NCBI GenBank assembly: GCA_964016885.1
Contig: OZ024746.1
Span: forward strand, 45,198,001 to 45,262,000
Direction: 5' to 3'
From: Eledone cirrhosa
Taxonomy: Eukaryota
Length of the DNA: 64,000 bases
Part shown: positions 15,904 through 64,000 of the stretch, one piece after another
How positions within the stretch are numbered: the first letter of the stretch is position 1
Layout of the letters: each line of letters opens with the position of its first letter
Made by a program: the position numbers and the translations under genes
The notes under the pieces: model-generated
Told to the model about the DNA's origin: nothing
The model's input: the letters and a program-made list of their open reading frames with translations, nothing else
Database searches by the model: none

Positions 15904-15908
<5 letters not shown>

Positions 15909-17074: not shown

Positions 17075-17115
17075 ATACACATATACACATGCACACATAC
17101 ATACACATCTGTACC

Positions 17116-22260: not shown

Positions 22261-22330
22261 CAACAACCACCACCACCACCACCACCACCACCACCACAAC
22301 AACAAAACAACAACAACTACTACTACTACT

Positions 22331-22384
<54 letters not shown>
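22261..22384 (+). repeat. Compound trinucleotide tract (CAC)n(CAA)n(CTA)n(AAT)n; 3' flank of Tx1 copy A
   Basis: Directly visible. Confidence 0.95.
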
Positions 22385-22386
<2 letters not shown>

Positions 22387-31757: not shown

Positions 31758-31758
31758 C

Positions 31759-31797: not shown

Positions 31798-32050
31798 TAT
31801 AATAATGTTTTCTTTATTAACCACAAGGGTTCACATAAAGTAGACATTAAGGACAGTACAGGACAATACAGGACGGTACAAATGGGCATTTCTGCGTGTA
31901 AAAAAAACAGAGGTTGAAATAAAATAACAAAGAAAAATTCCCCAATAGGGGGGAGACTTCCAAGGGACATTTGTGGAGAAAGCCCATTAAAAGACCACAG
32001 TGGCCCTGACCACCAAGGCAAGTGCCCTCTCCCAGTTTTCCACCTTTAAT

Positions 32051-35000
32051 TTACAGACACATACTCAGAGAAGGCCCATTCATTCGGGCCATACTTGCTT
32101 CTCTCACCCATCTTTCAACAAAATGCTGGGAAGAGAGCACTTCCCTCTCTACCCTGATTTTCCTTTTCAAATGAAATTTGAAAAAGTTAATCAGGGCATC
32201 ACCGAAGAGGTAAGTGCTCGTCTTCAGCCCTTTCAAACGTGTCCACCATACTATCTCTTTCGCCATGGCCACCAGACAGATAAAAACTGCCTGCCCTTCC
32301 AGGCTAAAGGAAGGGGGCGGGGCAATCCTCACGATGGACTCAGCTGATAGCCGGATCCGTCCTACACGTGACAGCAGGTGTTCGACATAAACCCACAAGT
32401 CAGCAATGATCGGACACTGGACGAGTGCGTGCAGGACGGTTTCGTCGCCCTGCGCGCATCTCGGACATGCCCGGCTGACAGCACCTCCATGCCTGTAGAG
32501 TTTATCCCGAACTGGCAAAGCTCCTCGGTAGCACTGCCAGGCCAGGGATTTCTGGAAGTTGTCCATAGGCCCCGGCCCGAAAGTCCTTCCGAAGAGACTG
32601 GCTAGTTGATTTTCGTCGACGCCTAGAGTTTCTCCAAGTACGTCGTCGCTCTTCCCCTCCACTAATCCCCTATAGAACGCCAAGGTGGAGTTTCCACCGA
32701 TCACATTGCCCGATTGGTCGAGGGCTGTGAGCGCCTGAAGACATTCCAGTCTCCAAGCGCTCCCTCTCGGTCTTCGCTTGACCCAGGACTGCAGCTCCGT
32801 CAAGGAGACGAGCTGAGGAAAAACGCGTCTTGCAAACGGCGACCACACCTGATCACCGTCGAGGAAGAGGTGGAGATGTCGTAGCCTGAGCGCGTGTCTG
32901 CGCATCATTAGCCACGGCATGCCCAGCCCTCCACGTAGCGGGTGTTGACAGCAGATGGACCGCCTGACCATCGGAGCGCGTCCCTTCCACAAGAAGCGAA
33001 AGAGCAAACGCTCCAGCGCAGTCAGGCGGGGCTTAGGACAAGGTACGACGGTCAGGCGGTAGTAGATGACGGATGCGATGTACGCATTCGCCACCTCCGC
33101 TCGACCTTTCAGGGATAGCTTCCTCTCGGCCCATTTCTGGGTGAGATAAGCCACCCTGCTCGTCACCTCGTCCCAGTTTTTGTCCGTCTGGAGGTCTGGA
33201 CCGAACCAGACCCCTAGCAATTTAACCGGTCCGTCCGTCCAGCGCCCGACGACGCTGTTGGACGGCATGGACCTGCCTCTCCAGGTGCCGAGCTGCAGGC
33301 CCACTGACTTTTCCTGGTTGATCATTGCTCCTGTCACCGCTTCGTATTCTCTTAGTGTAGTACCGATCGCCTCGATGTGTTTGGCGTTCGACACCACTAC
33401 GGTGACATCGTTGGCATATGCTGACACGGATCTTCCGCATCTTAGTTCGCGCGGGACCCCCCTCAACGTCTCCAGTTTGTGCAGTAATGGCTCGAGAGTC
33501 AATACGTACAATAGGGACGAGAGGGGACATCCTTGGCGGACCGAGCGCATGATGTTGAACGGTTCCGAAAGGTGACCGTTCACTCTCACTACAGAGCAGA
33601 TGTCGCTGTGCATGGCAGCGATCCAGCCTCTGAAGACGGGCCCAAAGCCAGCCGCCCTCAGGACTGCCGCTAGGTAACGATGGTCGACCCTATCGAAGGC
33701 TTTCGACTGATCTAAATTGATCAAAGACCCACCCGTGCCAGGTTCCCTAGCTACCCTCTCTACGATGTATCGCATGAGGTGGAGGTTGTCGTGGATGGAT
33801 CTGTCGGGAATGGCGCATGTCTGCGCCTCTCCCACCAGACCACCAACGACAAGCGCCAACCTCTTTGCTAGCACCTTGGCCAAAATCTTAAACTCTGTGT
33901 TTAGCAGAGTTATGGGCCTAAAATTATCTATGGTATCCCCCTTGTTCGGATCCTTTCTCAGCAGCGCCACCGCTCCTCGGCTCACAGAGCTGGGAATTCT
34001 CCCGTTCTGTTGCCAGTTGCAGTAGACGTCCGCCAAGAGGCCTCCGAACAAGTTTGGCATTTGTACGTAAAGTTCATAGGGGAGACCATCCAAACCAGGC
34101 GATTTACCCCTTGTGCAACTAGTCATTGCATCCCGTACTTCAGCGGTTGTTATCGGCTTTTCGCAACACTCCGCCTCAGTGGCCGAAAGCCGCGGCAGTC
34201 CGTCGAGGTAGACACTAAAGTCCATCCCTCTACCCGGCCCCCCGCTGCCCCCGAACAGCTGAGCGAAGTGTCGCTGAAAAGCTTCACACATTTGCCCGGG
34301 ATCGAGTAGCATGCGCCCGTCGTGGTCCACCAAAGACCGGATCGTGGCTTTGTTGCCACGACGCGCCTCCGCCACTCGGGCCCATTGAACGGCTTTCGTC
34401 CCCTCGTGTCTGAGAGCACGCACCCTAGCTCTGACAACGCAGCCTTCGTGCTTTGCATTGAAGAATTGGTCAAGAGCCAATTTCGCCGCAAGTACGTCGG
34501 TCGCGATGCCTTTGCTAAGCGCCTCATCTAATTTTCTAACTAATTCTCCCTCTACTCTATTTTTCTCTATTGCTAAAGTCTTACTAAACCTAATGGACTC
34601 TATTCTAATTGCTCTTTTCAGAGCAAACCACCACTTGTTGTTGACGATGCCCCCCGTCAACGCCCGCTTAACTAGTTCGCTAATCCGGTCTCTGTAGGCC
34701 TTGCGCGCTGGTAAGGACGCGTTTAGCTTCCAATAGCCGGGTCCTCGTCTATGAAGCCTATCTAAGTCAAGCACACAGATCACGAATTTGTGGTCCGTGT
34801 AGCTGACTATCTTGAATTGTGGACAGCCTATGCTAGACCTATCTATTTCCCTACAAAATACTCTATCTAGATATGATCTGGATGACCCTATGCGATTTGT
34901 CCAAGTCCACATTGGTACATTCGGGAAATCCATTCGGTACCTGTCAGACAGTTCAAAACGTCTGAGCAGGTTGGTGAGACTCTTGCACCCTCCTTCCCTA

Positions 35001-35470
35001 TCCACTAATCCCACACAATCCCAGCGTGCATCTAAGATCCCGTTCCAGTCGCCCACTAACACTAAAGAGCGGGACGTTCCAAGAAAGGTCTCCAGACGCC
35101 GGAAGAAATCAGGCCGCCCTGCTCCTGTCGGGGCATAGACGGCCACTAACCTGAAAGCTTTCCCGTCTCCGCTGGTCACGTCCAGCACCACCAACTTACC
35201 TTCTGGGTCCAGGAAGATGGCCCGTATGGCAAGATCCAAACCTCTCCGAAAAAGCACAGCAACTCCTCCCCCCGATCCCGGACGGCTGGGAGATGCGTAC
35301 ACATCGTAGCCGCCGAAGATCGGTGCGAAAGCCTGTGCTTCGGAGATTCTGGTCTCGCTGATGGCCACTACATCCATGTTTAGTGACCTGAGGTCGTTGA
35401 GCAGGTGGCCCTGCTTCCATGACGACCCCAAGCCACGCGCATTTATGCTGCCTATTCTGAGTGAGGTCAT
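32051..35470 (-). CDS. ORF2 polyprotein: APE endonuclease + reverse transcriptase + C-terminal CCHC (1139 aa); catalytic YADD mutated to YAND
   Basis: SINARGL, ISETR, VYAP, GDWN, SYLDR, TDH (APE). KSPGLDG, FRPITLLN, DQSKAFDRV, QGCPLS, YAND (RT). CPRC...H...C. Confidence 0.95.
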   Translation of the reverse strand: MTSLRIGSINARGLGSSWKQGHLLNDLRSLNMDVVAISETRISEAQAFAPIFGGYDVYASPSRPGSGGGVAVLFRRGLDLAIRAIFLDPEGKLVVLDVTSGDGKAFRLVAVYAPTGAGRPDFFRRLETFLGTSRSLVLVGDWNGILDARWDCVGLVDREGGCKSLTNLLRRFELSDRYRMDFPNVPMWTWTNRIGSSRSYLDRVFCREIDRSSIGCPQFKIVSYTDHKFVICVLDLDRLHRRGPGYWKLNASLPARKAYRDRISELVKRALTGGIVNNKWWFALKRAIRIESIRFSKTLAIEKNRVEGELVRKLDEALSKGIATDVLAAKLALDQFFNAKHEGCVVRARVRALRHEGTKAVQWARVAEARRGNKATIRSLVDHDGRMLLDPGQMCEAFQRHFAQLFGGSGGPGRGMDFSVYLDGLPRLSATEAECCEKPITTAEVRDAMTSCTRGKSPGLDGLPYELYVQMPNLFGGLLADVYCNWQQNGRIPSSVSRGAVALLRKDPNKGDTIDNFRPITLLNTEFKILAKVLAKRLALVVGGLVGEAQTCAIPDRSIHDNLHLMRYIVERVAREPGTGGSLINLDQSKAFDRVDHRYLAAVLRAAGFGPVFRGWIAAMHSDICSVVRVNGHLSEPFNIMRSVRQGCPLSSLLYVLTLEPLLHKLETLRGVPRELRCGRSVSAYANDVTVVVSNAKHIEAIGTTLREYEAVTGAMINQEKSVGLQLGTWRGRSMPSNSVVGRWTDGPVKLLGVWFGPDLQTDKNWDEVTSRVAYLTQKWAERKLSLKGRAEVANAYIASVIYYRLTVVPCPKPRLTALERLLFRFLWKGRAPMVRRSICCQHPLRGGLGMPWLMMRRHALRLRHLHLFLDGDQVWSPFARRVFPQLVSLTELQSWVKRRPRGSAWRLECLQALTALDQSGNVIGGNSTLAFYRGLVEGKSDDVLGETLGVDENQLASLFGRTFGPGPMDNFQKSLAWQCYRGALPVRDKLYRHGGAVSRACPRCAQGDETVLHALVQCPIIADLWVYVEHLLSRVGRIRLSAESIVRIAPPPSFSLEGQAVFICLVAMAKEIVWWTRLKGLKTSTYLFGDALINFFKFHLKRKIRVEREVLSSQHFVERWVREASMARMNGPSLSMCL

Positions 35471-35504
35471 GTTGAAAAGGAGTGGAAAAGATGGGAAAGA
35501 CCAC

Positions 35505-37475
35505 TTACCTTACTTCTCGTAGGAGAAGGACGGCTTTTCCATCCTTTTCACTGCTTGTGGCCTCCTCAGGAAGGATGTCCTTATAAATCCTCCTGGAGAG
35601 TGCTTGTCGGAAGTCTCCGATGTCTTTGGGGAATTTTTGTTTTAGTGTCATGTACGTTTTCTGTGTGATGCGAGTGATTTGTATGTGTGGAGGTGGTGTG
35701 AATTTTGGGGTTGTTGTGTAGTCTTTTTCTGTGATGCTGGTGTTGTTCAAATTTAATGCTGTGTAGTGTGTATCGTTTTGGTTGTTTTGTTTTGTTTGCG
35801 TTTGTTGTGGGTTTGTTTCTGTTTCGTATTTTGGTGACTTTTGTGGTGTAGGTGATGGTGGTGCTGGGGATAATGATGGTGATGGTGTTGGTGTTTGGGT
35901 TGATGGGGTTGGTGATGCTGGTGTGGATGGTGGCATATCTGTCCTAACTTTTTTGTTTCTTAGTTTATTTGTTTCCCTCTGTATTTTGTTTTTGGAGGGG
36001 GAAGGAAGAGAATTTTTTTCTTTTTTGGTTTCTTTTTTTTTTTCCGGATATCGTTTCCCACTCCTCGTCGTCACAATCTGTCTCCAGTTGTGATAGGCCG
36101 GGGAGTGGAAAATCCTCCACAGCCGTTAGTTTTGGTTGTGGTGTGGTGGATGGTGTAGGCGCTGGTGCTTGTTCTGAAGCGTTGGGTGGTGGTGGTGTTG
36201 GTTTTGCTGGTGGTGGTAGTGGTGTTGGTTTTGCTACTGTTGCTGGGGTTGTTGCTGTTATAGTTGCTTCTGTTGTTGCTGCTACAGTTGTTGCTGGCAT
36301 CCCTGCTACTGGTGGTGTTGATGGTTGTGTCACTGGGGTGGGTAGGAGAGGTGGCCTCAACCTTTTAGCCTGAGGGCAGAAAGCCCTTAGGTGGGTTCCT
36401 TCACCACAAACGACACATCTAGGTGTTCTGCCCTCGACAATTACCGTGAGGTGGCTGCCGTCAGTGAGGTCTATTACCTCTGGGATCTCCTCAATGCTTT
36501 TTTGGTCCGCTTGGATCAGGAGCTCCATCCCAGATCCGGACCAGTTTTCCTGCTTTTCTTTTGCTATTGTTATTATCTTCGTGTTGGCCTCGATGCCGGC
36601 GATGACAGCCGCTATTAGCCAGGGAATTTCGATGGCCGGTGGAACGTGGGTCACCCTGATCTTTACGAGTCTCTGGCCACAATAGCTTGGGACGAGTGTG
36701 AAGTCGTCACTTTTTAATGGGGCCATGGAGTGTTCTCTAGCCTCCTCTGGTGTTTCAAAGAACACATCCACGGTTCCATACTTTTGCCCACGTCTGATGT
36801 GGGTTTTTCTTGCCCACACATGTCCCAAAGCTTTTTGGATTTGGGACTCGGATGCCCGTTCCACTCGGCGCGATTTTACATTTATTGTTCTATACGACAC
36901 GGTGCACAGGCGCCGATGCTCCATTTTATTAGGTGGGGGGGGGGGGGGGGGTGAGGCTGACCCTGTACCCATCTTTCTTTACCATTTGTTTGGCATTTTC
37001 TAAATCTTCTTGAGTTACCGTGAACGCTTCGAATTGTTTTGCTACGATGGCGAAACTGAGGGTCGGTTTTATAATGTCATTGTTGTTGTTGTTGCTATCG
37101 TTAATATTAATTTTATTTTCAGTTGTGCTGGTGGTGACGTCAGTTGTCTTTGGTGGGGAAGAGTCCATTTTGCTTGATTTCATTTCGACGTCACGAGTTA
37201 ATTTATTTTTTTCTTCTTTTGTTTCTGTTGTCGCGGTGGTGGTGGTGGTGGTGGTGGTTGTCGCGGTGGTGGTGGTGGTGGAGGGTTTAACACCTGCAGT
37301 CATTGGTAATGGCGGGAAATGAATGTCTGCCTGAGACAAATTTAAAATATTGCTACTGCTTATATTTTTTTTTTGTGTTGGCAAACGTAGTAACATTTAC
37401 AATGGTGGTGTCGGTGTGAGGTGTTATTTTGTGAGGAAGGCTTTCAGCTGCTTCGTGCAGAGGGGAATTAGCCAT
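35505..37475 (-). pseudogene. ORF1 type 1 (gag-like, RRM-like region + single CCHC knuckle, Pro/Thr-rich), frameshifted, partly at homopolymer runs
   Basis: Pieces 36929-37396, 35965-36972 and 35505-36074. Knuckle CVVCGEGTHLRAFC. One shift lies at the G-run 36935-36951. Confidence 0.85.
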
Positions 37476-37684
37476 TTTTTTTCAAAGAAATTTTTGGATA
37501 ATAATAAAAGTTAAAATTTTGGGCACAAGGCCCCAATCTTTTTGGGTGTCCTTTTCGGAAAACAATGTATGTGTGCTTATAAACAGTTTACAATAAAATT
37601 TTCCATAAATGGCAATTTTTAAACAAACGGAAATAACAAACCTTTGCGGAGCTCACGATAATACGATTTCCTACGTAGGTCGCC

Positions 37685-37729
<45 letters not shown>

Positions 37730-38661
37730 AACAATTCCCTAAATGTATAGTGGTTTCATTTAGCATCAGGAAACAATTTTTTGAAACGATGATTTTTTGA
37801 AAATATGTCTGTCTATTATTTTCATTGATCATGAATAACTTGGATAGAAAGATACCTATCAGCTTCTTCCGTTATGCTGTATCTGTTTCCATTACGTGAA
37901 ACCTGGACAGGCAATAAAGATATTCCTATAGAATGTGATATAAGCGATTATTGGGGACAGAAAAATATTAACGATATTTACTTATACGAAAGAAAATAAT
38001 CTATTTGACATGAAGAAGATATGATCATTTTCACAACACTGAGCAAATAAATAATACATAGAAAACACACCTTTAAATTACTAACCAGAATAGTTTAATA
38101 CTGAATCTATATAACCAAATAGCTGCAGTTCAATATCAATATTTCTACATCAGATGTTGCCAGAGAAACTCTCTTAACATGACACAAATAATAACATCAA
38201 ATATTTTGTTAGTTTCAAATTACAATTGAATGAATTAGTTGCCGGAAAATGTGTAGTCTGCATATGCACGGAATTGCCATGTCGCACCTAGATATTATAT
38301 AATTTAGATCTACACTGTCGAACTGAGTAAAATTACTACGAAGAAAGATAAAGTAATAGAAAGGTGTTATATAACTCGATATTGATCAACTGAATAGACA
38401 AAGTTATTAAAATCTATAGAAACAAAACATGTTCTTTAATTAATATATTATGTCTAACTGATCGAAACATAATAATTAAAGAGACTGAAAAGAATACTGA
38501 CATTTTAACCTGCTGATAAATGTATCAAATATTGAAAGTGTGAAATAAGGAAAAAGAAAATATATCACTAAACATATACCATGCCAGTATATTGCACATC
38601 CAGTTATATTGGTTCCGAAAAAACTATACACATTTGCATGACAAGTTATTTCTGGTATACC

Positions 38662-38734
<73 letters not shown>

Positions 38735-40233
38735 ATAATGCACATGTATAATAGAAAGCATTTTCAAAAAAGTATATGCAATTATTTATCTAGAGTTTAC
38801 GAGACGAAGGGAATAACAGCATTATCTTTTGGAGCATCCTTTATAAAATAACTAATTTCTCTCCATGGCTTTTCACATGACATATCTGCTTCTCTGAGGG
38901 ATTGCATATATTGGAGTAACCCGCTATATCCACTGACAGACTAACAGAATGACCGGTATGAGTTTTTGGCTGTTTTAGCGAAATGTCCTGTTAAACAGTT
39001 GCAAGCACCTATCTCATCATACTTCCGAAATACCAACCTATCACCACCATGCAAGTGCATGATGGACAGTCCTTTTCTTCTAACTAACATGTACACATAT
39101 ACAAAAAGGACGCCTGCAGGAATTTTACAGCGACATTGGATTGGATACGAGTCCTACTTTTTTATATCACTAGTTTGTCACTATACTTGATTTCCAGATT
39201 AATCCTTCGACCCGGTAAGCAGCCGTGATACACTGATTTGACTGACCATTGAAAACCAGCATGTGGCCTTAATATTTATCTTTATGAAATGCCTTTCTCT
39301 CCCACCCCCGGTACTTATTCAGAACGCATATGAAGAGATGGGTCTGATTACATCTAGGAAGCCACTAGTAATGCATGAAGAAATTAAATTTATAATTTAT
39401 TTCTAACAATTGATGCGAAAGTGTTTCTAAAATGTCACGTGTGGAAAACTGATGTTTTTACCTGAAAAGGTTTGACAACAGCACAAGATATACATATATA
39501 CAGAAGAACATTGACTGCATTCATGTTATCAATTGCATCCATTTTATTGTTGTTCATGGTCCCAGTAGATAGAATGGTAAATGTGTTATCCTGATAGAGA
39601 TTAATATATTTTAAAGTACATGCGATGAATGAGGGTATATTTCCCAGTGGATGACATTTCAACCAACCTTAGCAGTAAATATTTCAGGGATCTTGGTACA
39701 CAATAATATATTTACTTAGTTTGTCGAATTTGAACCCTAATATACTCGACACATGATGAAATGACATCGTAATGCATTCAGTAGAGCTACTCATTATTTG
39801 CACTTTTGTTGCAGATTTCATTAAATATAGAAACACAGCTGACATACGCACAAAACCTTGCACTTGGTTTCGTGATTATACTTTTTTCTATTTCTAGATC
39901 TAACTATTTAGTCTTATACTTCAAAAGAATGTTCTGCCACTGGCAACTATGAAAATTCTAACACTGAATTAGAATCGATCTATTCAGATTCTACTAAACG
40001 TTTGCAATATTTACATTATTCCTTTACAGAGATCTGCTTAATTGAGTTCGCTACTTGGATATAAATTGATAACACGTCATTAACAACAACACCATCGCCG
40101 GCATAAGCTACAGAGTTAACAGGATATTACGAATAACAGTAGTTACGTCAACGAAACTGATTTGGAAACAATAGCAACATCCAAACACGATTTCTGTAAT
40201 ACCAACATTAACAAGAGCAACAGCAAATACTCA

Positions 40234-40265
<32 letters not shown>

Positions 40266-40266
40266 G

Positions 40267-40314
<48 letters not shown>

Positions 40315-40315
40315 G

Positions 40316-40378
<63 letters not shown>
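40234..40378 (+). repeat. (ACT)n microsatellite, 3' flank of Tx1 copy D
   Basis: Directly visible. Confidence 0.97.
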
Positions 40379-40383
40379 TAAAT

Positions 40384-42914
40384 GATTTCTTTATTAACCA
40401 CAAGGGTTTACATAAAGTAGACATTAAGGACAGTGCAGGACAATACAAGACGGTACAAATGGGCATTTCTGCGTGTAAAAAACAAAAACAGAGGATGTAA
40501 CAAAAAAATAACAATGAAAAATTCCCCGATAGGGGGAGACTTCGGAGGAACATTTGTGGAGAAAGCCCAGTAAAAGGACACAGTGACCCTGACCACCAAG
40601 GCACGTGCCCTCTCCCAGTTTTCCACCTTTAATTTACAGATACGTACTCAGAGTAGGCCCATTCACTCGGGCCATTCTTGCTTCTCTCACCCATCTTTCA
40701 ATAAAATGCTGGGAAGAGAGCACTTCCCTCTCTACTCTGATTTTCCTTTTCAAATGAAATTTGAAAAAGTCAATCAGGGCATCACCGAAGAGGTAAGTGC
40801 TCGTCTTCAGCCCTTTCAAACGTGTCCACCATACTATCTCTTTCGCCATGCCCTTCCCGGCTAAAGCAAGAGGCGGGGCAATCCTCACGATGGACTCAGA
40901 TGATAGCCGGATCCGTCCTACACGCGACAGCAGGTGTTCGACATAAACCCACAAGTCAGCAATTTTCGTACACTGGACGAGTGCGTGCAGGACGGTTTCG
41001 TCGTCCTGCGCGCATCTCGGACATGCCCGGCTGACGACACCTCGATGCCTGTAGAGTTTATCCCGAACTGGCAAGGCTCCTCGGTAGCACTGCCAGGCCA
41101 GAGATTTCTGGAAGTTGTCCATAGGTCCCGGCCCGAAAGTTCTTCCGAAGAGATTGGCTACTTGATTTTCGTCGACGCCTAGAGTTTCCCCAAGTACGTC
41201 GTCGCTCTTCCCCTCCACTAATCCTCTATAGAACGCCGAGGTGGAGTTTCGACCGATCACATTGTCCAATTGGTCGAGGGCTGTGAGCGCCTGAAGACAT
41301 TCCAGTCTCCAGGCGCTCCCTCTCGGTCTTCGCTTGACCCAGGACTGCAGCTCCGTCAAGGAAACGAGCTGGGGAAATACGTGTCTAGCAAACGGCAACC
41401 ACACCTGATCACCCTCGAGGAAGAGGTGAAGATGTAGTAGTCTGAGCACGTGTCTGCGCATCATCAGCCATGGCATGCCCAGCCCTACACGTAGCAAGTG
41501 TTGACAGCAGATGGACCGCCTGACCATCGGAGCGCGTCCCTTCCACAAAAAGCGAAAGAGCAAACGCTCCAGCGCAGTCAGGCGGGGCTTAGGACAAGGT
41601 ACGACGGTCAGGCGGTAGCAGAGGACAGACGCGATGTACGCGTTAGCCACCTCCGCTCGACCTTTCAGGGATAGCTTCCTCTCCGCCCATTTCTGGGTGA
41701 GAGAAGCCACCCTTCTCGTCACCTCGTCCCAGTATTTGTCCGTCTGGGCAAGAAGGGGCCATCCCGGGGGGGGGGACGTGGGTCAGTTTGACCCTCACAA
41801 TTTTTTGTCGGCAGTGAAGGGCACCAACACAATTTTCTCGCTCCTTAGGGTCACTAAGGATTGAGCCTTTGCCTCCTGGGGTGTGGCAAAAAGCACGTCC
41901 ACGTTGGCATATTTCTTGCCCCGGGTGATATGCGTTTTCCGCTGCCACACAGACCCTAAGGCTTTTTGTATTTGAGCCTCTGTGGCCCTTTCAACCCTAC
42001 GAGATTTTGTGCTTACTGTACGGTACGTGACCGTACAGTGCTGTTGGGTTTCGAAAAGTTTTCGGCTGCCTTCCAGATTGCTCGGTGTCCGGTTTTCGTC
42101 ACCATCTTCTTTGCTTCCTGTAATTCCTCATTTGTTATAAGGATGGTTTCCAGGTTCTTTGCGATACCTTACAAACGAGATTGGTTTTTCTTTCTTGTTG
42201 TTGTCGTCGTCAGAGCTGCTGTTACTTTTGTTGTTGCTGCTGGTACTACGACTGCCGCCGCCGCTGTTGCTGTGGTTGTTGTTGTTGTTGCTGCTGCTGT
42301 TGTTGTTTCTGTTGCTGCTAATGCTGTTGTTGTTTATGCTGCTGCTGATGCTGTTGCGGCTGCTACTGTTGTTTTCCGTGTCACTGTTGCTGCTGCTGCT
42401 GTTATTACGGCTGCTACTGCTATTATTCATGACGTCAGACGAATGAAATGGGTTTTCGTATTTACCGCACACCTTTTTGATCGTTGTCGTCGTCGTGGAG
42501 AAATCTTCCACGTTTCGCACGTGATTTTGGAAACTATTTTTCTTTACTGGTGTCGCTTTACTGGCGTCTCTGGGAGGGAGAGAAACACATTTAGAGAAGG
42601 GAGGGAGAGAGACAATCTCCTCTCTGGTGTAGTGACCATTGAAGAAGAAGAAGACGGAATGAGTGGGAGTGACTTGTGAAAATTATTTTTTGTAGCCATG
42701 TTTCATTTTGGTTTAAAATAAATATTGGGCATAAAACCCCAATAAGCGGTTATTTAACCCCGAAGGGCCGAATAATGGGCAGAAAGACCCCTCTCACGAG
42801 GAGGAGGGTGTTTTTGTCTACAATTTGGTTAAAGTTTTAAACAATTTACAATTGTTATAGCGGTTAAAATTTAAAATACCTTACAGAGCCGCGCATCCGT
42901 CAACCATGGCATTC
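40384..42914 (-). mobile_element. Tx1 copy D (5' module type 2), internally deleted (~3.5 kb removed, junction ~41747)
   Basis: Both termini intact. Mid-ORF1 (VKLTHVPP) is fused directly to late ORF2 (…DEVTRRVASL). Confidence 0.93.
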
Positions 42915-42949
<35 letters not shown>

Positions 42950-43211
42950 TTTCTTTATTAACCACAAGGGTTTACATAAAGTAGACATTAAGGACAGTGC
43001 AGGACAATGCAGGACGGTACAAATGGGCATTTCTGCGTGTAAAAAAACAAAAACAGAGGATGTAACAAAAATAACAATGAAAATAACAATGAAAAAATTC
43101 CCCAATAGGGGGGGAGACTTCGGAGGGACATTTGTGGAGAAAGCCCAGTAAAAAGCCACAATGACCCTGACCACCAAGGCAAGTGCCCTCTCCCAGTTTT
43201 CCACCTTTAGT

Positions 43212-46200
43212 TTACAGATATATACTCAGAGTCGGCCCATTCACTCGGGTCATTCTTGCTTCTCTCACCCATCTTTCAACAAAATGCTGGGAAGAGAGCA
43301 CTTCCTTCTCTACTCTGATTTTCCTTTTCAAATGAAATTTGAAAAAGTCAATCAGAGCATCACCGAAGAGGTAAGTGCTCGTCTTCAGCCCTTTCAAACG
43401 TGTCCACCATACTATCTCTTTCGCCATGGCCACCAGACAGATAAAAACTGCCTGCCCTTCCCGGCTAAAGGAGGAGGGCGGGGCAATCCTCACGATAGAC
43501 TCAGATGATAGCTGGATCCGTCCCAAACGCGACAGCAGGTGTTCGACATAAACCCACAAGTCAGCAATTTTCGGACACTGGACGAGTGCGTGCAGGACGG
43601 TTTCGTCGCCCTGCGCGCATCTCGGACATGCCCGGCTGACGGCACCTCCATGCCTGTAGAGTTTATCCCGAACTGGCAAGGCTCCTCGGTAGCACTGCCA
43701 GGCCAGAGATTTCTGGAAGTTGTCCATAGGCCCTGGCCCGAAAGTTCTTCCGAAGAGATTGGCTAGTTGATTTTCGTCGACGCCTAGAGTTTCCCCAAGT
43801 ACGTCGTCGCTCTTCCCCTCCACTAATCCTCTATAGAACGCCGAGGTGGAGTTTCCACCGATCACATTGCCCGATTGGTCGAGGGCTGTGAGCGCCTGAA
43901 GACATTCCAGTCTCCAGGCGCTCCCTCTCGGTCTTCGCTTGACCCAGGACTGCAGCTCCGTCAAGGAAACGAGCTGGGGAAAAACGCGTCTAGCAAACGG
44001 CGACCACACCTGATCACCGTCGAGGAAGAGGTGGAGATGTCGTAGCCTGAGCGCGTGCCTGCGCATCATCAGCCACGGCATGCCCAGCCCTCCACGTAGC
44101 GGGTGTTGACAACAGATGGACCGCCTGACCATCGGAGCACGTCCCTTCCACAAAAAGCGAAAGAGCAAACGCTCCAGCGCAGTCAGGCGAGGCTTAGGAC
44201 AAGGTACGACGGTTAGGCGGTAGCAGATGACAGACGCGATGTACGCGTTAGCCACCTCCGCTCTACCTTTCAGGGATAGCTTCCTCTCCGCCCATTTCTG
44301 GGTGAGAGAAGCCACCCTGCTCGTCACCTCGTCCCAGTTTTTGTCCGTCTGGAGGTCCGGACCGAACCAGACCCCTAGCAATTTAACCGGTCCGTCCGTC
44401 CAGCGCCCGACGACGCTGTTGGACGGCATGGACCTGCCTCTCCAGGTGCCGAGCTGCAGGCCCACTGACTTTTCCTGGTTGATCATTGCTCCTGTCACCG
44501 CTTCGTATTCTCTTAGTGTAGTGCCGATCGCCTCGATGTGTTTGGCGTTCGACACCACTACGGTGACATCGTCCGCATATGCTGACACGGATCTTCCGCA
44601 TCCTAGTTCGCGCGGGACTCCCCTCAACGTCTCCAGTTTGTGCAGTAATGGCTCGAGAGTCAATACGTACAAGAGGGACGAGAGGGGACATCCTTGGCGG
44701 ACCGAGCGCATGATGTTGAACGGTTCCGACAGGTGACCGTTCACTCTCACCATAGAGCAGATGTCGCTGTGCATGGCAGCGATCCAGCCTCTGAAGACGG
44801 GCCCAAAGCCAGCCGCCCTCAGGACTGCCGCTAGGTAACGATGGTCGACCCTATCGAAAGCTTTCGACTGATCTAAATTGATCAAGGACCCACCCGTGCC
44901 AGGTTCCCTAGCTACCCTCTCTACGATGTATCGCATGAGGTGGAGGTTGTCGTGGATGGATCTGTCGGGAATGGCGCATGTCTGCGCCTCTCCCACCAGA
45001 CCACCAACGACAAGCGCCAACCTCTTTGCTAGCACCTTGGCCAAAATCTTAAACTCTGTGTTTAGCAGAGTTATGGGCCGGAAATTGTCTATGTTATCCC
45101 CCTTGTTCGGATCCTTTCTCAGCAGTGCCACCGCTCCTCGGCTCACAGAACTGGGAATTCTCCCGTTCTGTTGCCAGTTGCAGTAGACGTCCGCCAAGAG
45201 GCCTCCGAACAAGTCTGGCATCTGTACGTAAAGTTCATAGGGCAGACCATCCAAACCAGGCGATTTACCCCTTGTGCAGCCAGTCATTGCCTCCCGTACT
45301 TCAGCGGCTGTTATCGGCTTTTCGCAACACCTCGCCTCAGTGGCCGAGAGCCGCGGCAGTCCGTCGAGGTAGACACTAAAGTCCATCCCTCTACCCGGCC
45401 CCCCGCTGCCCCCGAACAGCTGAGCGAAGTGTCGCTGAAAAGCTTCACACATTTGCCCGGGATCGAGTAGCATGCGCCCGTCGTGGTCCACCAAAGACCG
45501 GATCGTGGCTTTGTTGCCACGACGCGCCTCCGCCACTCGGGCCCATTGAACGGCTTTCGTCCCCTCGTGTCTGAGAGCACGCACCCTAGCTCTGACAACG
45601 CAGCCTTCGTGCTTTGCATTGAAGAATTGGTCAAGGGCCAATTTCGCCGCAAGCACGTCGGTCGCAATGCCTTTGCTAAGCGCCTCGTCTAATTTTCTCT
45701 ATTGCTAAAGCCTTACTAAACCTAATCGATTCTATTCTAATCGCTCTTTTCAGAGCAGACCACCACTTGTTGTTGACGATGGCCCCCGTCAACACCCGCT
45801 TAACTAGTTCGCTAATCCGGTCTCTGTAGGCCTTGCGCGCTGGTAAGGACGCGTTTAGCTTCCAGTAGCCGGGTCCTCGTCTATGAAGCCTATCTAAGTC
45901 AAGCACACAGGTCACGAATTTGTGGTCCGTGTAGCTGACTATCTTGAATTGTGGACAGCCTATGCTAGACCTATCTATTTCCCTACAAAATACTCTATCT
46001 AGATATGATCTGGATGACCCTATGCGGTTTGTCCAAGTCCACATTGGTACATTCGGGAAATCCAATCGGTACCTGTCAGACAGTTCAAAACGCCTGAGCA
46101 GGTTGGTGAGGCTCTTGCACCCTCCACCCCTATCCGCTAATCCCACACAGTCCCAGCGTGCATCTAAGATCCCGTTCCAGTCGCCCACTAACACTAAAGA

Positions 46201-46602
46201 GCGGGACGTTCCAAGAAAGGTCTCCAGACGCCGGAAGAAATCAGGCCGCCCTGCTCCCGTCGGGGCATAGACGGCCACTAGCCTGAAAGCTTGCCCGTCT
46301 CCGCTGGTCACGTCCAGCACCACCAGCTTACCCTCTGGGTCCAGGAAGATGGCCCGTATGGCGATATCCAAACCTCTCCGAAAAAGCACAGCAACTCCTC
46401 CACCCGATCCAGGACGGCTGGGAGATGCGTACACATCGTAGCCGCCGAAGATCGGTGCGAAGGCCCGTGCTTCGGAGATTCTGGTCTCGCTGATGGCCAC
46501 TACATCTATGTTTAGTGACCTGAGGTCGTTGAGCAGGTGACCCTGCTTCCATGACGACCCCAAGCCACGCGCATTTATGCTGCCTATTCTGAGTGAGGTC
46601 AT
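43212..46602 (-). pseudogene. ORF2 (APE-RT-CCHC) split by a 29-bp deletion at ~45692; YADD intact
   Basis: ORFs 45676-46602 and 43212-45656 align with copy C ORF2. Confidence 0.92.
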
Positions 46603-46637
46603 GTTTAAAATAGAGTGGAAAAGATGGGAAAGACCAC

Positions 46638-48734
46638 TTACCGTACTTTTGGTAGAGGAGGGATGGTTTTTACATCCCTTTTCACTTGATCGTCTGGTGA
46701 AGGGACCGTTGAATCGTCCCTTCGGCTGGTCGTCGGCTCTTCTAAGAGAATGTCTGAATATACTCTTCGATTGATGGTTCCTCCTAGGTCCCTGAAATCA
46801 CCAACTGCGTTGGGGAATTTCGTTTTAATGTTTGTGTATTGTTTCTGTGCTATTTTTAGCAGTCTTATGTTAGTTGGCGTTTTGATTGGTGCTGGTATTA
46901 TGTAGTCCTGTTGTGAAATGTCTGTGTGTTCAATTATGTAAGTCATTAGTTTCTTGTTGTGTGTGTTTATTGCCGTGCATTTGTTTTTCTGGGGGTGGGG
47001 TGTGGTTCTGCTATTTTCTTGTCGTTGTTGCTGGGTGTGTGTGTTTTGTTGTTGTGTTTGCGATGTTGGTGCTTGTGGTGGTGGTGTTGAAGGTGTTGTT
47101 GGCGGTGGGGTTGTCGCCGGTGGTGATGGTGGTGCTGGTGTGGGTGGTGATGGTGTTGGTGGTGTTGCTGCTGTGGGTCTCTTTGCAGTAGACTTTACCC
47201 TTTTCTCATTTCTTTCCTCCCTTTTCAAAGGCGACGATGCGCTGCTTCTGCGTTTGTGCCTTCTTGCAACCTTTTGCCACCCCTCTCCCACCTCACACTC
47301 CATGTCTGATTCTGTGAGGTCGGGGAGGGGTACCAGCTCCACTCTTTCACTTGTTGTTGTTGGTGATGTTTGCACTGGAGTCTCTGTTGCAGCTGCATTT
47401 GGTATTGCTGTTGTTGTTGTTACTATTTCCACTGCTGCTGCTGTTTTTGATTTCCGTGGAGTGGGTATGGGTGCCACGGACCTATCGTTCCTGGTTGCCG
47501 CTTGTCCTGCTGCTTGTAGCCGTGGAGCCGGATTCGGAAGGAGGGGGGTTTTCTCCTTTCTCAGGGTCTTCTCGTTGCAGAAGGCCCTGAGGTGAGTCTT
47601 CGATCCACAGCGAAAGCATTTCGGGCATTTGCCCTCAACACTTATGGGCAGTTGAGTGCCGTTATCGAAGTCTATCACATCCGGGATAGCTTCGATGCAC
47701 TCCTGGTTGGTTTGGATTAGCATCTCAATGGAGGAGCCGCCCCAATCTTCTCTTACTTTTTTCTGTACTTGCAGTACAGTTGTTTTGTCCTCGATTCCGA
47801 CGAGGACAGACGCGGCCAGCCAAGAAGGGGTCATTCCGGGGGGGACGTGGGTCAGTTTGACCCTCACAATTTTTTGCCCACAGTAGGAGGGCACCAACAC
47901 CATTTCCTCGCTCCTTAGGGTCACTACTGATTGGGCCTTTGCCTCCTGGGGTGTGGCAAAAAGTACGTCTACGGTGGCATATTTTTTGCCTCGGGTGATG
48001 TGCGTTTTCCGCTGCCACACAGACCCCAGGGCTTTTTGTATTTGGGCCTCTGTGGCTCTTTCCACCCTACGGGATTTTGTACTTACTGTACGGTACGTGA
48101 CCGTACAGTGCTCTTGGGTTTCGAAACATGTTTCCGCTGCCTTGCAGATTGCTCGGTGTCCGTTCTTTGTCACCATCTTCTTCGCTTCCTCTAATTCCTC
48201 ATTTGTTATGAGGATTGTTTCCAAGTTTTTCGCAATACCTGCAAATGAGATTGGTTTTTCTCTGCTGTTGTTGTTGTCGTCAGAGCTGCTGGTACTTTTG
48301 TTGTTGCTGCAGGTGCTACGACTACTGCCTCCGCCGCTGTTGCTGTGGTTGTTGTTGGTGTTGCTGCTGCTAATGCTGTTGTTGTTTATGCTGCTGGTGA
48401 TGCTGTTGCGGCTGCTACTGTTGTTTTCATTGTCACTGTTGCAGTTGTTATTACGGCTGCTACTGCTATTATTCCTGACGTCTGACGAATGAACTGGGTT
48501 TTCGTATTTCCCGCACACCTGTTTCGTCGCTGTCGTCGTCGTCGTGGAGAAACCTTGCACGCTTTGCACGAGACTTTTCTTTTCTTTCGTCACTTGCGAA
48601 AGAGAAGGGAGGGAGAGAGACACATTTAAAGAAGGGAGGGAGAGAGACAATCTTCTCTCTGCTGTAGTGATGATTGAGGAAGAAGAAGACGGAATGAGTG
48701 GGAGTGACGTATGAAATTTCTTTTTCGTAGCCAT
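46638..48734 (-). CDS. ORF1 type 2, intact 698-aa gag-like nucleic-acid-binding protein
   Basis: Ser/Asn-rich N-terminus, RRM-like region, knuckle CFRCGSKTHLRAFC, EGWQKVARRHKRR motif, Pro/Thr-rich linker. Lies directly upstream of ORF2. Confidence 0.9.
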   Translation of the reverse strand: MATKKKFHTSLPLIPSSSSSIITTAERRLSLSLPSLNVSLSLPSLSQVTKEKKSLVQSVQGFSTTTTTATKQVCGKYENPVHSSDVRNNSSSSRNNNCNSDNENNSSSRNSITSSINNNSISSSNTNNNHSNSGGGSSRSTCSNNKSTSSSDDNNNSREKPISFAGIAKNLETILITNEELEEAKKMVTKNGHRAICKAAETCFETQEHCTVTYRTVSTKSRRVERATEAQIQKALGSVWQRKTHITRGKKYATVDVLFATPQEAKAQSVVTLRSEEMVLVPSYCGQKIVRVKLTHVPPGMTPSWLAASVLVGIEDKTTVLQVQKKVREDWGGSSIEMLIQTNQECIEAIPDVIDFDNGTQLPISVEGKCPKCFRCGSKTHLRAFCNEKTLRKEKTPLLPNPAPRLQAAGQAATRNDRSVAPIPTPRKSKTAAAVEIVTTTTAIPNAAATETPVQTSPTTTSERVELVPLPDLTESDMECEVGEGWQKVARRHKRRSSASSPLKREERNEKRVKSTAKRPTAATPPTPSPPTPAPPSPPATTPPPTTPSTPPPQAPTSQTQQQNTHTQQQRQENSRTTPHPQKNKCTAINTHNKKLMTYIIEHTDISQQDYIIPAPIKTPTNIRLLKIAQKQYTNIKTKFPNAVGDFRDLGGTINRRVYSDILLEEPTTSRRDDSTVPSPDDQVKRDVKTIPPLPKVR

Positions 48735-48973
48735 GTTGTTTTTTGTTTAAAATGAAATTTTGGGTACAAAACCCCAATAACTGGTTATTTAACCCCGAAG
48801 AGCCAAATAACGGACAGAAAGACCCCTCTCACGAGGAGGAGGGTGTCTTTATCAACAATTTGGTTCAAGTTTTAAACAATTTACAATTGTTTTAACGGTT
48901 AAAAATTACTATACCTTACAGAGCCGAGCCTCCGTCAACCATGGCATTCAATAATAATAATAATAATAATAAT

Positions 48974-51900
48974 GATTTCACAAGGGGTTACATAAAGTAG
49001 ACATTAAGGACAGTACAGGACAATGCAGAACGGTACAAATGGGCATTTCTGCGTGTAAAAATACAGAGGATGTAATAAAAAAAATAACAATGAAAAATTC
49101 ACCAATAAGGGGGGAGACTTCCGAGGGACATTTATGGAGAAAGCCCATTAAAAGGCCACAGTGACCCTGACCACAAGGGCAAGTGCCCACTCCCAGTTTT
49201 CCACCTTTAATTTACAGAGAGATACTCAGAGTAGGCCCATTCACTCGGGCCATACTTGCTTCTCTCACCCATCTTTCAACAAAATGCTGGGAAGAGAGCA
49301 CATCCCTCTCTACCCTGATTTACCTTTTAAAATGAAATTTGAAAAAGTTAATCAGGGCATCACCGAAGAGGTAAGTGCTCGTCTTCCGCCCTTTCAAACG
49401 TGTCCACCATACTATCTCTTTCGCCATGGCCACCAGACAGATAAAAACTGCCTGCCCTTCCCGGCTAAAGGAAGAGGGCGGGGCAATCCTCACGATGGAC
49501 TCAGCTGAGAGCCGGATCCGTCCTACACGTGACAGAAGTGTTCGACATAAACCCACAAGTCAGCAATGCTCGGACACTCTACGAGTGCCTGCAGGACGGT
49601 TTCGTCGCCCTGTGCGATTCTCCATGCCTGTAGAGTTTATCCCGAACTGGCAAAGCTCCTCGGTAGCACTGCCAGGCCAGAGATTTCTGGAAGTTGTCCA
49701 TAGGCCCCGGCCCGAAAGTCCTTCCGAAGAGATTGGCTAGTTGATTTTCGTCGACTCCTACAGTTTCTCCAAGTACGTCATCGCTCTTCCCCTCCACTAA
49801 TCCTCTATAGAACGCCAAGGTGGAGTTTCCACCGATCATATTGCCCGATTGGTCGAGGGCTGTGAGCGCCTGAAGACATTCCAGTCTCCAAGCGCTCCCT
49901 CTCGGTCTTCGCTTGACCCAGGACTGCAGCTCTGTCAAGGAGATGAGCTGGGGAAAGACGTGTCTAGCAAACGGCGACCACACCTGATCACCGTCGAGGA
50001 AGAGGTGGAGATGTTGTAGCCTTAGCGCGAGTCTGCGCATCATCAACCACGGCATGCCCAGCCCTCCACGTAGAGAGTGTTGACAACAGATGGACCGCCT
50101 GACCATCGGAGCGCGTCCCTTCCACAAAAAGGGAAAGAAAAACGTTCCAGCGCAGTCAGGCAGGGCTTAGGACATGGTACGACGGTCAGGCGGTAGTAGA
50201 TGACGGATGCGATGTACGCGTTGGCCACCTCCGTTCGACCATTCAGGGATAGCTTCCTCTCCGCCCATTTCTGGGTGAGAGAAGCCACCCTGTTCGTCAC
50301 CTCGTCCCAGTTTTTGTCCGTCTGGAGGTCCGGACCGAACCAGACCCCTAGCAATTTAACCGCTCCGCCCGTCCAGCGCCCGACAACGCTGTTGGACCGC
50401 ATGGACCTGCCTCTCCAGGTGCCGAGCTGCAGGCCTACTGACTTTTCCTGGTTGATCATTGCTCCTGTCACCACTTCGTATTCTCTTAGTGTAGTGCCGA
50501 TCGCCTCGATGTGTTTGGCGTTCGACACCACTACGGTGACATCGTCCGCATATACTGACACGAATGTTCCGCATCCTAGTTCGCCCGGGACCCGCCTCAA
50601 CGTCTCCAGTTTGTGCAGTAATGGCTCGAGAGTCAATACGTACAAGAGAGACGAAAGGGGACATCCTTGGCGGACCGAGCGCATGATGTTGAACGGTTCC
50701 GAAAGGTGACCGTTGACTCACATCACAGAGCAGATGTCGCTGTGCATGGCAGCGATCCAGCCTCTGAAGACGGGCCCAAAGACAGCCGCCCACAGGACTG
50801 CCGCTAGGTAACGATGGTCGACCCTATCGAAAACTTTCGACTGATCTAAATTGATCAAGGACCCACCCGTGCCAGGATCCCTAGCTACCCTCTCTACGAT
50901 GTATCGCATGAGGTGAAGTTTGTCGTGGATTGATCTGACGGGAATTGCGCATCTCTCCACCTCTCCCACCAGACCACCAACGACAAGCGCCGACCTCTTT
51001 GCTAGCACCTTGGCCAAAATCTTGAACTCTGTGTTTAGCAGAGTTATGGGCCTGAAATTATCTATGTTATCCCTTTGTTCGGATCCTTTCTCAGCAGCGC
51101 CACAGCTCCTCGGCTTACAGAGCTGGAAATTCTCCCGTTCTGTTGCCAGTTGCAGTAGACGTCCGCCAAGAGGCCTCCGAACAAGTCTGGCATCTGTACG
51201 TAAAGTTCATAGGGGAGACCATCCAAACCAGGCGATTTACCCTTTGTGCAGCCAGTCATTGCCTCCCGTATTTTAGCGGCTGTTATCGGCTTTTCGCAAA
51301 ACTCCGCCTCAGTGACCGAGAGCCGCGGCCCGCCGATTCCCCCGAACAGCTGTGCGAAGTGTCGCTGAAAAGCTTCACAGATTTTCCCGGGATAGAGAAG
51401 CATGCGCCCCTCGTGGTCCACCAAAGAACGTATCTTGGCTTTGTTGCCACGACGCGCCTCCGCCACTCAGGCCCATTGAACGGCTTTCATCAAGTCGTGT
51501 CTGAGAGCACGCACCCTAGCTCTGACAACGCAGCCTTCGTGCTTTGCATTGAAGAATTGGTCAAGGGCTAATTTCGCCGCAAGAACGTTGGTCGCGATGC
51601 CTTTGCTAAGCGCCTCGTCTAATTTTCTAACTAATTCTCCCTCTGCTCTATTTGTCTCTATTGCTAAAGCCTTACTAAACCTAATGGACTCTATTCTAAT
51701 TGCTCTTTTCAGAGCAAACAGTCACTTGTTGTTGACGCTGGCCCCCGTCAACGCCCGCTTAACTGGTTCGCTAATCCGGTCTCTGTAGGCCTTGCGCGCT
51801 GGTAAGGACGCGTTTAGCTTCCAGTAGCCGGGTCCGCGTCTACGAAGCCTATCTAAGTCAAGCACACAGATCACGAATTTGTGGTCCGTGTAGCTGACTA

Positions 51901-61058: not shown

Positions 61059-61060
<2 letters not shown>
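58073..61060 (+). mobile_element. R4/Dong-clade copy H (second, divergent family); RT core internally deleted near 60165
   Basis: KWSREDN Myb-like N-terminus, [22 protein letters not shown], then a jump to CRVC...HIISMC, RHD, and RLE motif NRHDII...LID...KYKDLEIE. (TAA)n tail 61060-61089. Confidence 0.9.
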
Positions 61061-61088
<28 letters not shown>

Positions 61089-61090
<2 letters not shown>

Positions 61091-62648: not shown

Positions 62649-62676
62649 TAATAACAACAATAATAATAATAATAAT

Positions 62677-64000
62677 GATTTCTTTATTGGCCACAAGGGC
62701 TGGTACACAAGGGCCACAAGGGCTGGTACACAAGGGCCACAGGACGGTACGATGTGGATTTTGTGCGTGTAAATATTTTTATTATTTATATAAGAAAAGA
62801 AAAAAAAAGGACACAGAAACATATATATATATATATATATATATAAACAATAAAAATGAAAATTGAAACAATGAAAAATTCCCCAATAGGGGAGAAACCT
62901 CCGAGGGTTACTCGTGGCGAAAACCACACAAAAGACCACGGCCACCCTGCCCACCAGGGCAAGAAGCCTCTCTCAATTTTTCCATCTCTCAAACTACAGA
63001 CGTATATTCAGAGTGGTCCCGTTCACTCGGAGCATTCTCGCTACATTCACCCACCTTTCACCAAACTTGCTAGAAGGCAGAAAAAGATAATTAGGAATTC
63101 GCCGAAGAGGGAAGTGTCTGTCTTTAACCCTTTTAACCTTGTCCACCACACAATCTCTTTCGCCATGGCAACCAGGCAGATGAAAACCGCCTGCCCTTCC
63201 TCCTCGAAGGAAGACGGCGAGACCATCTGCACAATGGACTCAGTCGACAACCGGATCAGTCCCACACGCGACAGCAACTGTTCGACATAGCTCCACAAGT
63301 CAGCCATGCTCGGGCACTGAACGAGTGCGTGCACGACGGTTTCGTCGCTCTGCGTGCATCTCGGACAGGCTCGGCTGACGGCACTTCCGTGCCTGTAGAG
63401 CTTATCTCGAACCGGCAGCGCTCTCCGGTAGCACTGCCAGGCCAGGGATTTTTGGACGTTATCCATAGGCCCCGGGCTGAAAGTTCTCCGGAAGAGAGAA
63501 AACAGCTGATCTTCTTCGACGCCCAGGATCTCTCCGAGAATGTCGTCGCTCTTCCCATCCAATAGTCCTCTATAGAACGCCGAGGTGGATGTTCCACCGT
63601 TACTGGTGCCCAGCTGGCAGAGGGCAGTGAGCGCCTGGAGACATTCCAGTTTCCAAGCGCTATGCCTCGATCTTTTTCTGACCAAGGGCTGCAGCTCGGT
63701 CAAGGAGACGAGCTGTGGGAAAACGTGCCTGGCGAACGACGACCACACCTGTTTACCATCAAGGAAGTACCAGAGATGTCGCAGCCTCAGCGCATGTTTG
63801 CGCATCATCAGCCATGGCATGCCTAGTCCTCCACGCAACGGGTGTTGACAGCAGATGGATCGTCTGACCATGGGAGCGCGTCCCTTCTACAAAAAGCGGA
63901 AGAGGAGGCACTCCATTTTGGTGAGAGTTGGACTGGAGCAAGGGACGACGGTGAGGCTGTAGCAGATGACGGATGCGATGTACGCATTCGCCACCTCCGC
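62677..64000 (-). mobile_element. Tx1 copy G (more divergent subfamily), 3' part; continues beyond the window; inserted in the tail of Dong copy I
   Basis: ORF 63047-63871 is homologous to the ORF2 C-terminus. 3' end AATAAAGAAATC(ATT)n. 23-bp tandem duplication at 62691-62740. Confidence 0.93.

Follow-up and report, generated by a model that had tools for sequence, protein, structure and literature searches.

Two diverged 5′ modules on one young ORF2 in an L1-clade LINE family of Eledone cirrhosa

A window of 64,000 nucleotides (nt) from Eledone cirrhosa (contig OZ024746.1 of assembly GCA_964016885.1; the window is the whole stretch of DNA that was analysed) contains six copies of a long interspersed nuclear element (LINE) of about 6 kb, designated A, C, D, E, F and G and all located on the minus strand. 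The element has two open reading frames (ORFs), ORF1 and ORF2. Two types of 5′ module, each comprising the 5′ untranslated region (5′UTR) and ORF1, were found in front of a common ORF2: type 1 in A, C and F and type 2 in D and E, as the initial annotation of this DNA had proposed. The best explanation overall, and a probable one, is that two long-diverged sister modules came to lie on one young ORF2 through recombination of neighbouring copies.

Two 5′ modules on one ORF2

The 5′ module of copy C, of type 1, occupies positions 35471..37684 (minus strand, as for all coordinates of the copies below) and consists of the 5′UTR (37476-37684), an ORF1 with its ATG at 37475 and its stop at 35507-35505, the frame of which is broken by frameshifts, and a 34-nt spacer. 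The module of copy E, of type 2, occupies 46603..48949 and consists of the 5′UTR (48735-48949), an intact ORF1 of 698 amino acids (48734-46638) with two RRMs, one CCHC knuckle, low-complexity arms and a C-terminal box, and a 35-nt spacer. The type-1 modules of A, C and F were found to be 91-93% identical to one another, and D and E share the other module. Between C and E, the ORF2 proteins are 96.5% identical over 1129 codons, whereas the ORF1 cores are 56% identical, in agreement with the moderate similarity initially described. The synonymous difference (pS) between the same two copies was 0.74 (95% interval, 0.645-0.83) in the ORF1 core and 0.086 (0.069-0.106) in ORF2, that is, the two frames are unequal in synonymous divergence, as the proposed exchange demands. 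Core pS is similarly high for F and E (0.78) and for A and E (0.79), the between-type difference at fourfold-degenerate sites is 0.79, and the core is under purifying selection (nonsynonymous difference, pN, of 0.26 versus the pS of 0.74). Within type 1, C was found to differ from A and F by a pS of 0.15-0.16 in the core and 0.08-0.11 in ORF2. Since the synonymous sites of ORF1 are saturated beside a young ORF2, which faster evolution of ORF1 cannot produce, the boundary between them is a true breakpoint, and an exchange of the 5′UTR-ORF1 module relative to ORF2 very probably took place.

Breakpoint analysis of C versus E revealed a sharp step in identity from 66% to 96%. The best single step lies at C 35509 and E 46642, at the last ORF1 codon, and not about 50 nt inside ORF1 as first described. 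A BLAST match does begin 44 nt inside ORF1 (35552/46686), where those 44 nt are about 73% identical and one stretch matches at 22/30. The breakpoint interval in C spans 35504..35515, with the best point, 35509, being the base just before a donor-like GTAAGT; the first base of this motif is 35508, and the ORF1 stop of C lies within it.

The 5′ ends of the two types had initially been called unrelated, a description that did not hold. The cores and the C-terminal box align between types (the box being 46% identical at the amino acid level over 56 codons), and the type-1 and type-2 ORF1s are sisters, with support of 98/81, in a tree of 77 rows made up of those of 150 listed matches that align over at least 110 residues plus three window cores. 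The last 50 nt or so of the 5′UTRs share a weak motif, the score of which was reached by 2/300 shuffles for C and E and by 10, 13 and 42/300 for the other three pairs. Type-1 and type-2 modules are thus diverged sister homologues. D has lost the first two thirds of ORF2, and C and E are distinguished by more than scattered residues. ORF2 of C (32051..35470) is an open frame of 1139 amino acids with an APE endonuclease, a reverse transcriptase (RT) and a zf-RVT domain, in which YAND replaces the catalytic motif YADD; ORF2 of E, which together with the 3′UTR occupies 42948..46602, is split by a frameshifting deletion of 29 nt near 45698.

Cassette exchange in a related array family

A search with the ORF2 alignment retrieved tandem arrays of a related element, whose ORF2 is 41% identical, in contigs CAXXMW (loci L081-L118, L121 and L123); these are long head-to-tail arrays with a period of 6.4-6.9 kb. 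The contigs are filed under a bacterial metagenome-assembled genome (MAG), a GTDB genome labelled Arenicella, and are likely to be eukaryotic repeat DNA, the DNA of a host having been binned into the MAG. The arrays hold 58 ORF2 starts, 38 of which have enough flank to be counted as complete units. These 38 units were found to combine 11 module clusters, including one deletion form, with 8 ORF2 clusters. Different cassettes sit on ORF2s that are up to 100% identical, different modules alternate inside one array contig, and, among ten representatives, ORF2s with a pS of 0.002 bear ORF1 cores with a pS of 0.76-0.84. The two trees are incongruent: module M3 groups with M7/M10 in the ORF1 tree (0.999) and with M1 in the ORF2 tree (1.0), while M7 itself is a mosaic of the M10 core and the M8 C-terminal half. 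The cassettes start in the 5′UTR and stop 83-133 nt before ORF2, with 99-100% identity on both sides, an arrangement that would fit homology-limited conversion or crossover. The arrays may be mis-assembled in part; the main modules recur in several contigs. An Rfam scan of five array loci gave no matches and no RNA-gene target.

The array family is an independent replicate of the pattern seen in the window, and cassette exchange is therefore a property of the clade and not of a single locus. Together with the saturated ORF1s on a young ORF2 and the sharp step in identity, this replicate supports the recombination between co-targeted subfamilies that had been put forward in the initial annotation.

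The junction in sequencing runs of other studies

The region 46601-54700 was compared with 4 of 24 listed sequencing runs. In run X4, which comes from another study, one contig of 2370 nt leads from the end of the type-2 ORF1 (2 differences in 665 nt) into ORF2, and the depths of the two modules, about 6 and 4, stand beside about 10 for ORF2. For each module, the longest contig in run X6 ends at the junction motif; the depths of these two contigs are 44 and 34, versus 74-116 for the four listed ORF2 contigs. Run X22 (raw Hi-C data, about 1 in 100 of which was read) was observed to match only in low-complexity stretches. Most joints (1206) and loose ends (4378) of the run contigs fell outside the listing, and spliced or third-module forms may be among them. 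Both junctions are family-level forms.

History of the two types

Of the 29 informative sites in the 3′ 1.3 kb, 16 unite D with E, and every other grouping has at most 3. Because D and E have these 16 diagnostic sites in common, the two types have been separate in their 3′ lineage since the main exchange; ORF2 is not fully homogenised between them. Sites specific to E were found at 12/1312 positions in the RT zone versus 29/1315 in the 3′ zone (Fisher p=0.011), whereas the density of own sites in A, C and F is alike in both zones. This suggests, from one copy, a later partial exchange in the RT zone of E. Within type 2, D and E show a second, nested discordance, with a pS of 0.28 in the ORF1 core and 0.068 in the 3′ part of ORF2.

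Splice-site-like signals at the junction and in the 3′UTR

The identity step coincides with a match to the 5′ splice-site consensus, G/GTAAGT. In C, E and F this motif contains the ORF1 stop, and its counterpart in A is degenerate, so that the donor motif is present at three of the four junctions in the window; the donor-like site of E is at 46641. In the array family, the motif lies just after the ORF1 stop at 72 of 74 ORF2 starts (overlapping loci being responsible for some double counts). None of 36 other loci, namely those of 86 with an alignable ORF2 start, has it at a distance of up to 60 nt from that start; these loci are mostly 21-32% identical and include L113 at 40%, and the chance of the motif per 60 nt is 0.0036. 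An acceptor-like site, consisting of a pyrimidine tract and CAG, is present in the 3′UTR of five of the six window copies, ending at A 22470, C 31892, D 40469, E 43033 and F 49049, in 38/38 array units and also in L113. In the 3′UTR of copy C (31807..32050), this site and an AATAAA are located upstream of the (ATT)n tail. In a tree of unnamed rows, L113 falls together with the window and array families in a single, fully supported clade.

A donor that is conserved where the structural ORF ends, as in the Ty1/Copia type, was thus found in this clade, except in L113 and with a degenerate form in copy A. Since the junction donor and the acceptor-like sites of the 3′UTR occur in both families, ORF2 may lie in an intron, which would allow an ORF1-only mRNA. 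Splicing from the donor at the end of ORF1 to the 3′UTR acceptor is predicted to yield such an RNA; this prediction is advanced tentatively, its chances being judged somewhat short of even. The proteins P0067 and P0070 have endings compatible with the donor motif and were not counted. L113 (L113:1971 and L113:5471) is a second family in CAXXMW, in which a donor-like site after the ORF2 stop is followed about 140 nt on by an acceptor-like site; these signals may represent a possible intron in the 3′UTR.

Alternative explanations

The motif could bind the U1 small nuclear ribonucleoprotein (snRNP) without any splicing, in which case U1 would block premature 3′-end formation in the A-rich ORF1 or retain the full-length RNA in the nucleus, and the motif would be a homology island. 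This is unlikely, although such a role would suit the conservation of the donor in two reading-frame settings, a second donor-like site just after the ORF2 stop in 38/38 array units and in L113, and the occurrence of five AATAAA in the ORF1 of C and none in either ORF2. A U1 role against premature termination has also been named for a long terminal repeat (LTR) element (PMC5580714; this and the other cited sources are used here as far as their text was available). However, the conserved acceptor-like sites in the 3′UTR would then be needless, and the ORF1 of E has just one AATAAA.

A mini-intron of 52-53 nt, the removal of which would fuse ORF1 to ORF2 in frame to give a Gag-Pol-like protein, with the exchange following an exon boundary, is quite improbable. 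The candidate in C is located at 35457..35508 (minus strand), measures 52 nt from the donor to the first AG and has 34/44 pyrimidines; that in E measures 53 nt. Its AG-free pyrimidine tract is the joint richest 30-mer of copy C, the fusion would be in frame in C, E and F despite their differing intron lengths, and the preferred breakpoint coincides with the final base of the exon. Yet such an intron is impossible in the array family, where the donor follows the ORF1 stop and ORF2 begins a few bases on with neither tract nor acceptor. The ATG of ORF2 itself lies inside the would-be intron, which is very short; the frame fits by chance in 1 of 3 cases, the spacer is kept in all copies, and no close fused protein was found among 20 matches (lengths up to 1994 amino acids; 8000 candidates scored).

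That a singular chimera or a mistake in the assembly placed a type-2 5′ end on a type-1 ORF2 in copy E is very improbable. The RT zone of E does lack an excess of type-2 sites, and its type-2 junction is the sole one in the window, but the X4 contig from another study bridges the same junction, because of which E is not a one-off; X6 has a type-2 module contig ending at the junction, and in D a type-2 5′ end is still coupled with a 3′ end in which the 16 sites shared with E are present. An ORF1 merely evolving faster under relaxed or positive selection, with no exchange at all, is just as hard to credit: the 5′ module is indeed more diverged than ORF2 within type 1, but the between-type saturation, the change within about 12 nt, the incongruent array trees and the identical array ORF2s bearing saturated cores all oppose it, and the synonymous step refutes it unless the mutation rate differs about tenfold across one codon.

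Proposed mechanism

The step in divergence and its position, the family-level status of both junctions, the (ATT)n flanks and the F-E-D tandem are all observed, and a homology-limited, array-aided route is probably how the exchange came about. Shared targeting would pile both types into the same (ATT)n repeats, where ORF2 could be moved between the types by crossover or gene conversion limited by homology, or by template switching in the course of reverse transcription. The ORF2 of one lineage would thereby be replaced as far as the final conserved bases, those at the ORF1 stop. The boundary would stop where usable homology ends, the conserved 5′-splice-site-like motif being the last homology island. 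After the main exchange, the types would again have been separate lineages, with probable later partial exchanges. The motif is predicted to bind U1 snRNP and to pair with the acceptor of the 3′UTR, so that ORF2 would be the intron; the ORF1 protein would be made from a spliced subgenomic RNA, and the unspliced RNA would serve as ORF2 message and as template. For the Tx1-like clade as a whole, a scheme in which ORF2 lies in an intron, ORF1 is expressed from spliced RNA and a library of cassettes is shuffled in arrays against host recognition or mutual interference is possible but doubtful. Escape from host silencing, which the initial annotation offered as the benefit of the exchange, is a conjecture that the present results neither favour nor oppose.

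Several observations weigh against this account or parts of it. E is the one copy of the window in which the type-2 junction is seen, and in run X1 the depths of the modules next to the junction add up to less (137k + 228k) than the 569k of ORF2, because of which further modules or truncated copies are possible, summed contig depth being no copy number. The 16 diagnostic sites of D and E speak against ongoing homogenisation; of the continual homogenisation of ORF2 suggested initially, what stands is the weak signal of a later exchange in the RT zone. Conversion at the DNA level and template switching may both fit, as may either direction of the swap. The donor does not set the breakpoint in the arrays, where the 3′ breakpoints precede it by 70-120 nt; splice-driven exchange as a general mechanism was ruled out on this ground. 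The predicted splicing is opposed by copy G, which has CAC where the others have the acceptor CAG, and by family L113, which is nearer to the array family than the window family is and has no donor at the end of ORF1. The window contains GGTAAGT 11 times, some of them within ORF2 (35200 and 52291) and antisense in every copy, so that the heptamer alone is not rare. Spliced DNA copies were found at 0/5 acceptor contexts in the window and 0/55 junction matches in the arrays.

Classification of the element

In ORF2, the Pfam families Exo_endo_phos, RVT_1 and zf-RVT score above the cut-off, and the best match among solved structures is human L1 ORF2p (E 7e-52), with R2 at 3e-20. A separate ORF1 lies upstream of ORF2, and the element has a 3′ poly(A) signal, a simple-repeat tail and no LTRs. 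The combination of APE, RT and a C-terminal cysteine-rich zinc domain in ORF2 with a separate ORF1 is that of the L1 clade. The model of the ORF1 core has a pLDDT of 90, and its top folds are those of the tandem-RRM proteins HuD and Sxl, with modest TM-scores of 0.35/0.45. One CX2CX4HX4C motif, the CCHC knuckle, lies downstream of the RRMs, and a zf-CCHC Pfam match was obtained for 8/47 ORF1 homologues. Judged from this model, the protein is a type I ORF1 (RRM upstream of CCHC; definition from PMC4120745), as the Tx1 group requires. A weak Pfam match of ORF1 to MBD, below the cut-off, was dropped in favour of the RRMs of the structure model. The family fits an L1-clade, Tx1-like LINE inserted in (ATT)n repeats, the Tx1 label resting on the ORF1 type and on the targeting; members of the Tx1 group often target repeats (PMC4494074).

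A profile search with the ORF1 core gave 501 proteins at E<=1e-3, and a word-indexed search with it gave 0/975 candidates. The named relatives (9 named of 20 looked up) belong to Octopus sinensis, O. bimaculoides, O. vulgaris and Argonauta, and the best of them have a core identity of only 39-47%; by themselves these matches would make an octopod, or some other cephalopod, the likely host. Searches for related loci gave none in metagenome or viral contigs with a single ORF2 and none in viral contigs with the ORF2 alignment. The database proteins P0072 and P0202 fuse pieces of ORF1 to unrelated host-like sequence and are probably gene-model artefacts.

Other features of the window

Copy A (22385..27429, type 1) is the oldest, with 43 private changes in 1296 columns, and has a deletion of about 740 nt in the endonuclease region. 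Copy D (40384..42914, type 2) is internally deleted: at 41748, the 5′ 1.15 kb of its module meet the last third of ORF2, and the 3′ half of ORF1 is gone as well. Copy F (48974..54713, type 1) is full-length and decayed and is the head of the head-to-tail array F-E-D. Copy G (62677..64000) belongs to an older sister family, 77% identical at the nucleotide level and with a pS of 0.40-0.47 versus the others; its 3′ part is present here, and its 5′ part lies beyond the window. None of the window copies retains two intact ORFs. The internal deletions are located at 25128-25132 (A), 41748 (D) and 45698 (E), and short direct repeats mark the ends of those in A and E.

Nine (AAT)n tracts of at least five units are present in the window, among them the (AAT)11 between E and D (42915..42947). 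Eight of them, at 22334, 27430, 31759, 37685, 42915, 48950, 54714 and 62659, adjoin these LINEs, and ATT repeats abut 5/5 complete 5′ ends and 6/6 3′ ends, as counted in one window and with tails indistinguishable from targets. The tail of D is a remnant, replaced by AGT repeats. The tails of D (40234-40378) and A (22266-22332) continue into (AGT)n and (GGT)n tracts, which suggests decay or conversion of the target repeat.

Two decayed single-ORF RT elements, at about 28600-31758 and 58586-62658 on the plus strand, have (AAT)n ends and a C-terminal region resembling a restriction-like endonuclease; presumably they are akin to Dong/R4 elements. Copies C and G lie in the tails of these elements in the opposite orientation. 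An old remnant of the ORF2 3′ end, 67% identical, lies at 56141-56411 (minus strand), and local direct duplications of 200-420 nt with 93-100% identity were observed at 14705-17075 and 2661-3746. An Rfam scan of the window gave no matches.

Comparison with known systems

The coexistence of LINE families and the turnover of their 5′ ends and ORF1s have been argued mostly from mammals. The two invertebrate-type families described here are natural chimeras, with which it can be asked whether the promoter, ORF1 or neither is under host pressure. In RT-based repeat libraries, the two types would be lumped together as a single family. Provided that the splice sites are functional, the element would be a LINE whose ORF1:ORF2 ratio is controlled via splicing and not via re-initiation.

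Among Tx1 LINEs, Kibi and Koshi target (TC)n and (TTC)n (PMC4494074), and 13 recently active L1-Tx1 families have been described in Octopus vulgaris (PMC13282606), the repeat library of which may hold both types as consensus entries. The present family resembles the Tx1 group in its APE-RT-zinc-binding ORF2, type I ORF1, microsatellite insertion and tandem copies. It differs from the members described in the available text of these two sources in its (ATT)n target, its two saturated ORF1 modules on one ORF2 and its splice-site-like motifs. Neither ORF1 cassette exchange nor an ORF2-spanning intron in Tx1-like elements was found in the literature searched, which was without Repbase, most subscription journals and supplements, and the available text of PMC9115989, PMC5203782, PMC10951436 and 10.1101/782904 holds no direct precedent.

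The parallel with mammalian 5′UTR replacement drawn initially is only a loose one, given that the modules here are homologues that have diverged and that ORF1 moves in its entirety; a non-homologous new 5′UTR with retention of ORF1, as in the mammalian type, was not what was found here. In fish, frog and lizard L1, little 5′UTR replacement has been reported (PMC5381506). The mouse L1 families Tf and Gf are recombinant (PMC3600994) and, like the present family, place the 5′UTR and ORF1 of one family on the ORF2 of another by inter-family recombination, with co-active families having different 5′ ends. However, the mouse breakpoints fall within ORF2, towards its 5′ end, and the parental families are closely related, whereas here the breakpoint is at the ORF1 stop, the synonymous sites of ORF1 are saturated, and a related family has many cassettes in arrays. 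In CR1/L2, ORF1 evolution is reticulate and ORF2 is tree-like (PMC4120745), similar to the exchange of ORF1 described here; the transfer of different ORF1 types between clades was ancient in that case, whereas here it is recent and involves homologous sister ORF1s.

Ty1/Copia elements produce a spliced subgenomic GAG RNA, demonstrated by experiment and coupled to premature termination (PMC5580714). A donor at the end of the structural gene gives an excess of structural protein in those elements, and the same logic is predicted here. Unlike Ty1/Copia, which are LTR elements, the present element is a LINE with its predicted acceptor in the 3′UTR, known from DNA alone. Drosophila TART is a targeted LINE with head-to-tail arrays, several subfamilies and functional splice sites (PMC1636488), but its introns are in antisense transcripts, and it belongs to the Jockey clade and is telomeric, unlike the Tx1-like family. 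Overall, module exchange is known from mouse L1, and what has no counterpart in the literature searched is the recurrence of whole-ORF1 cassettes, together with splice-like signals, in a Tx1-like clade.

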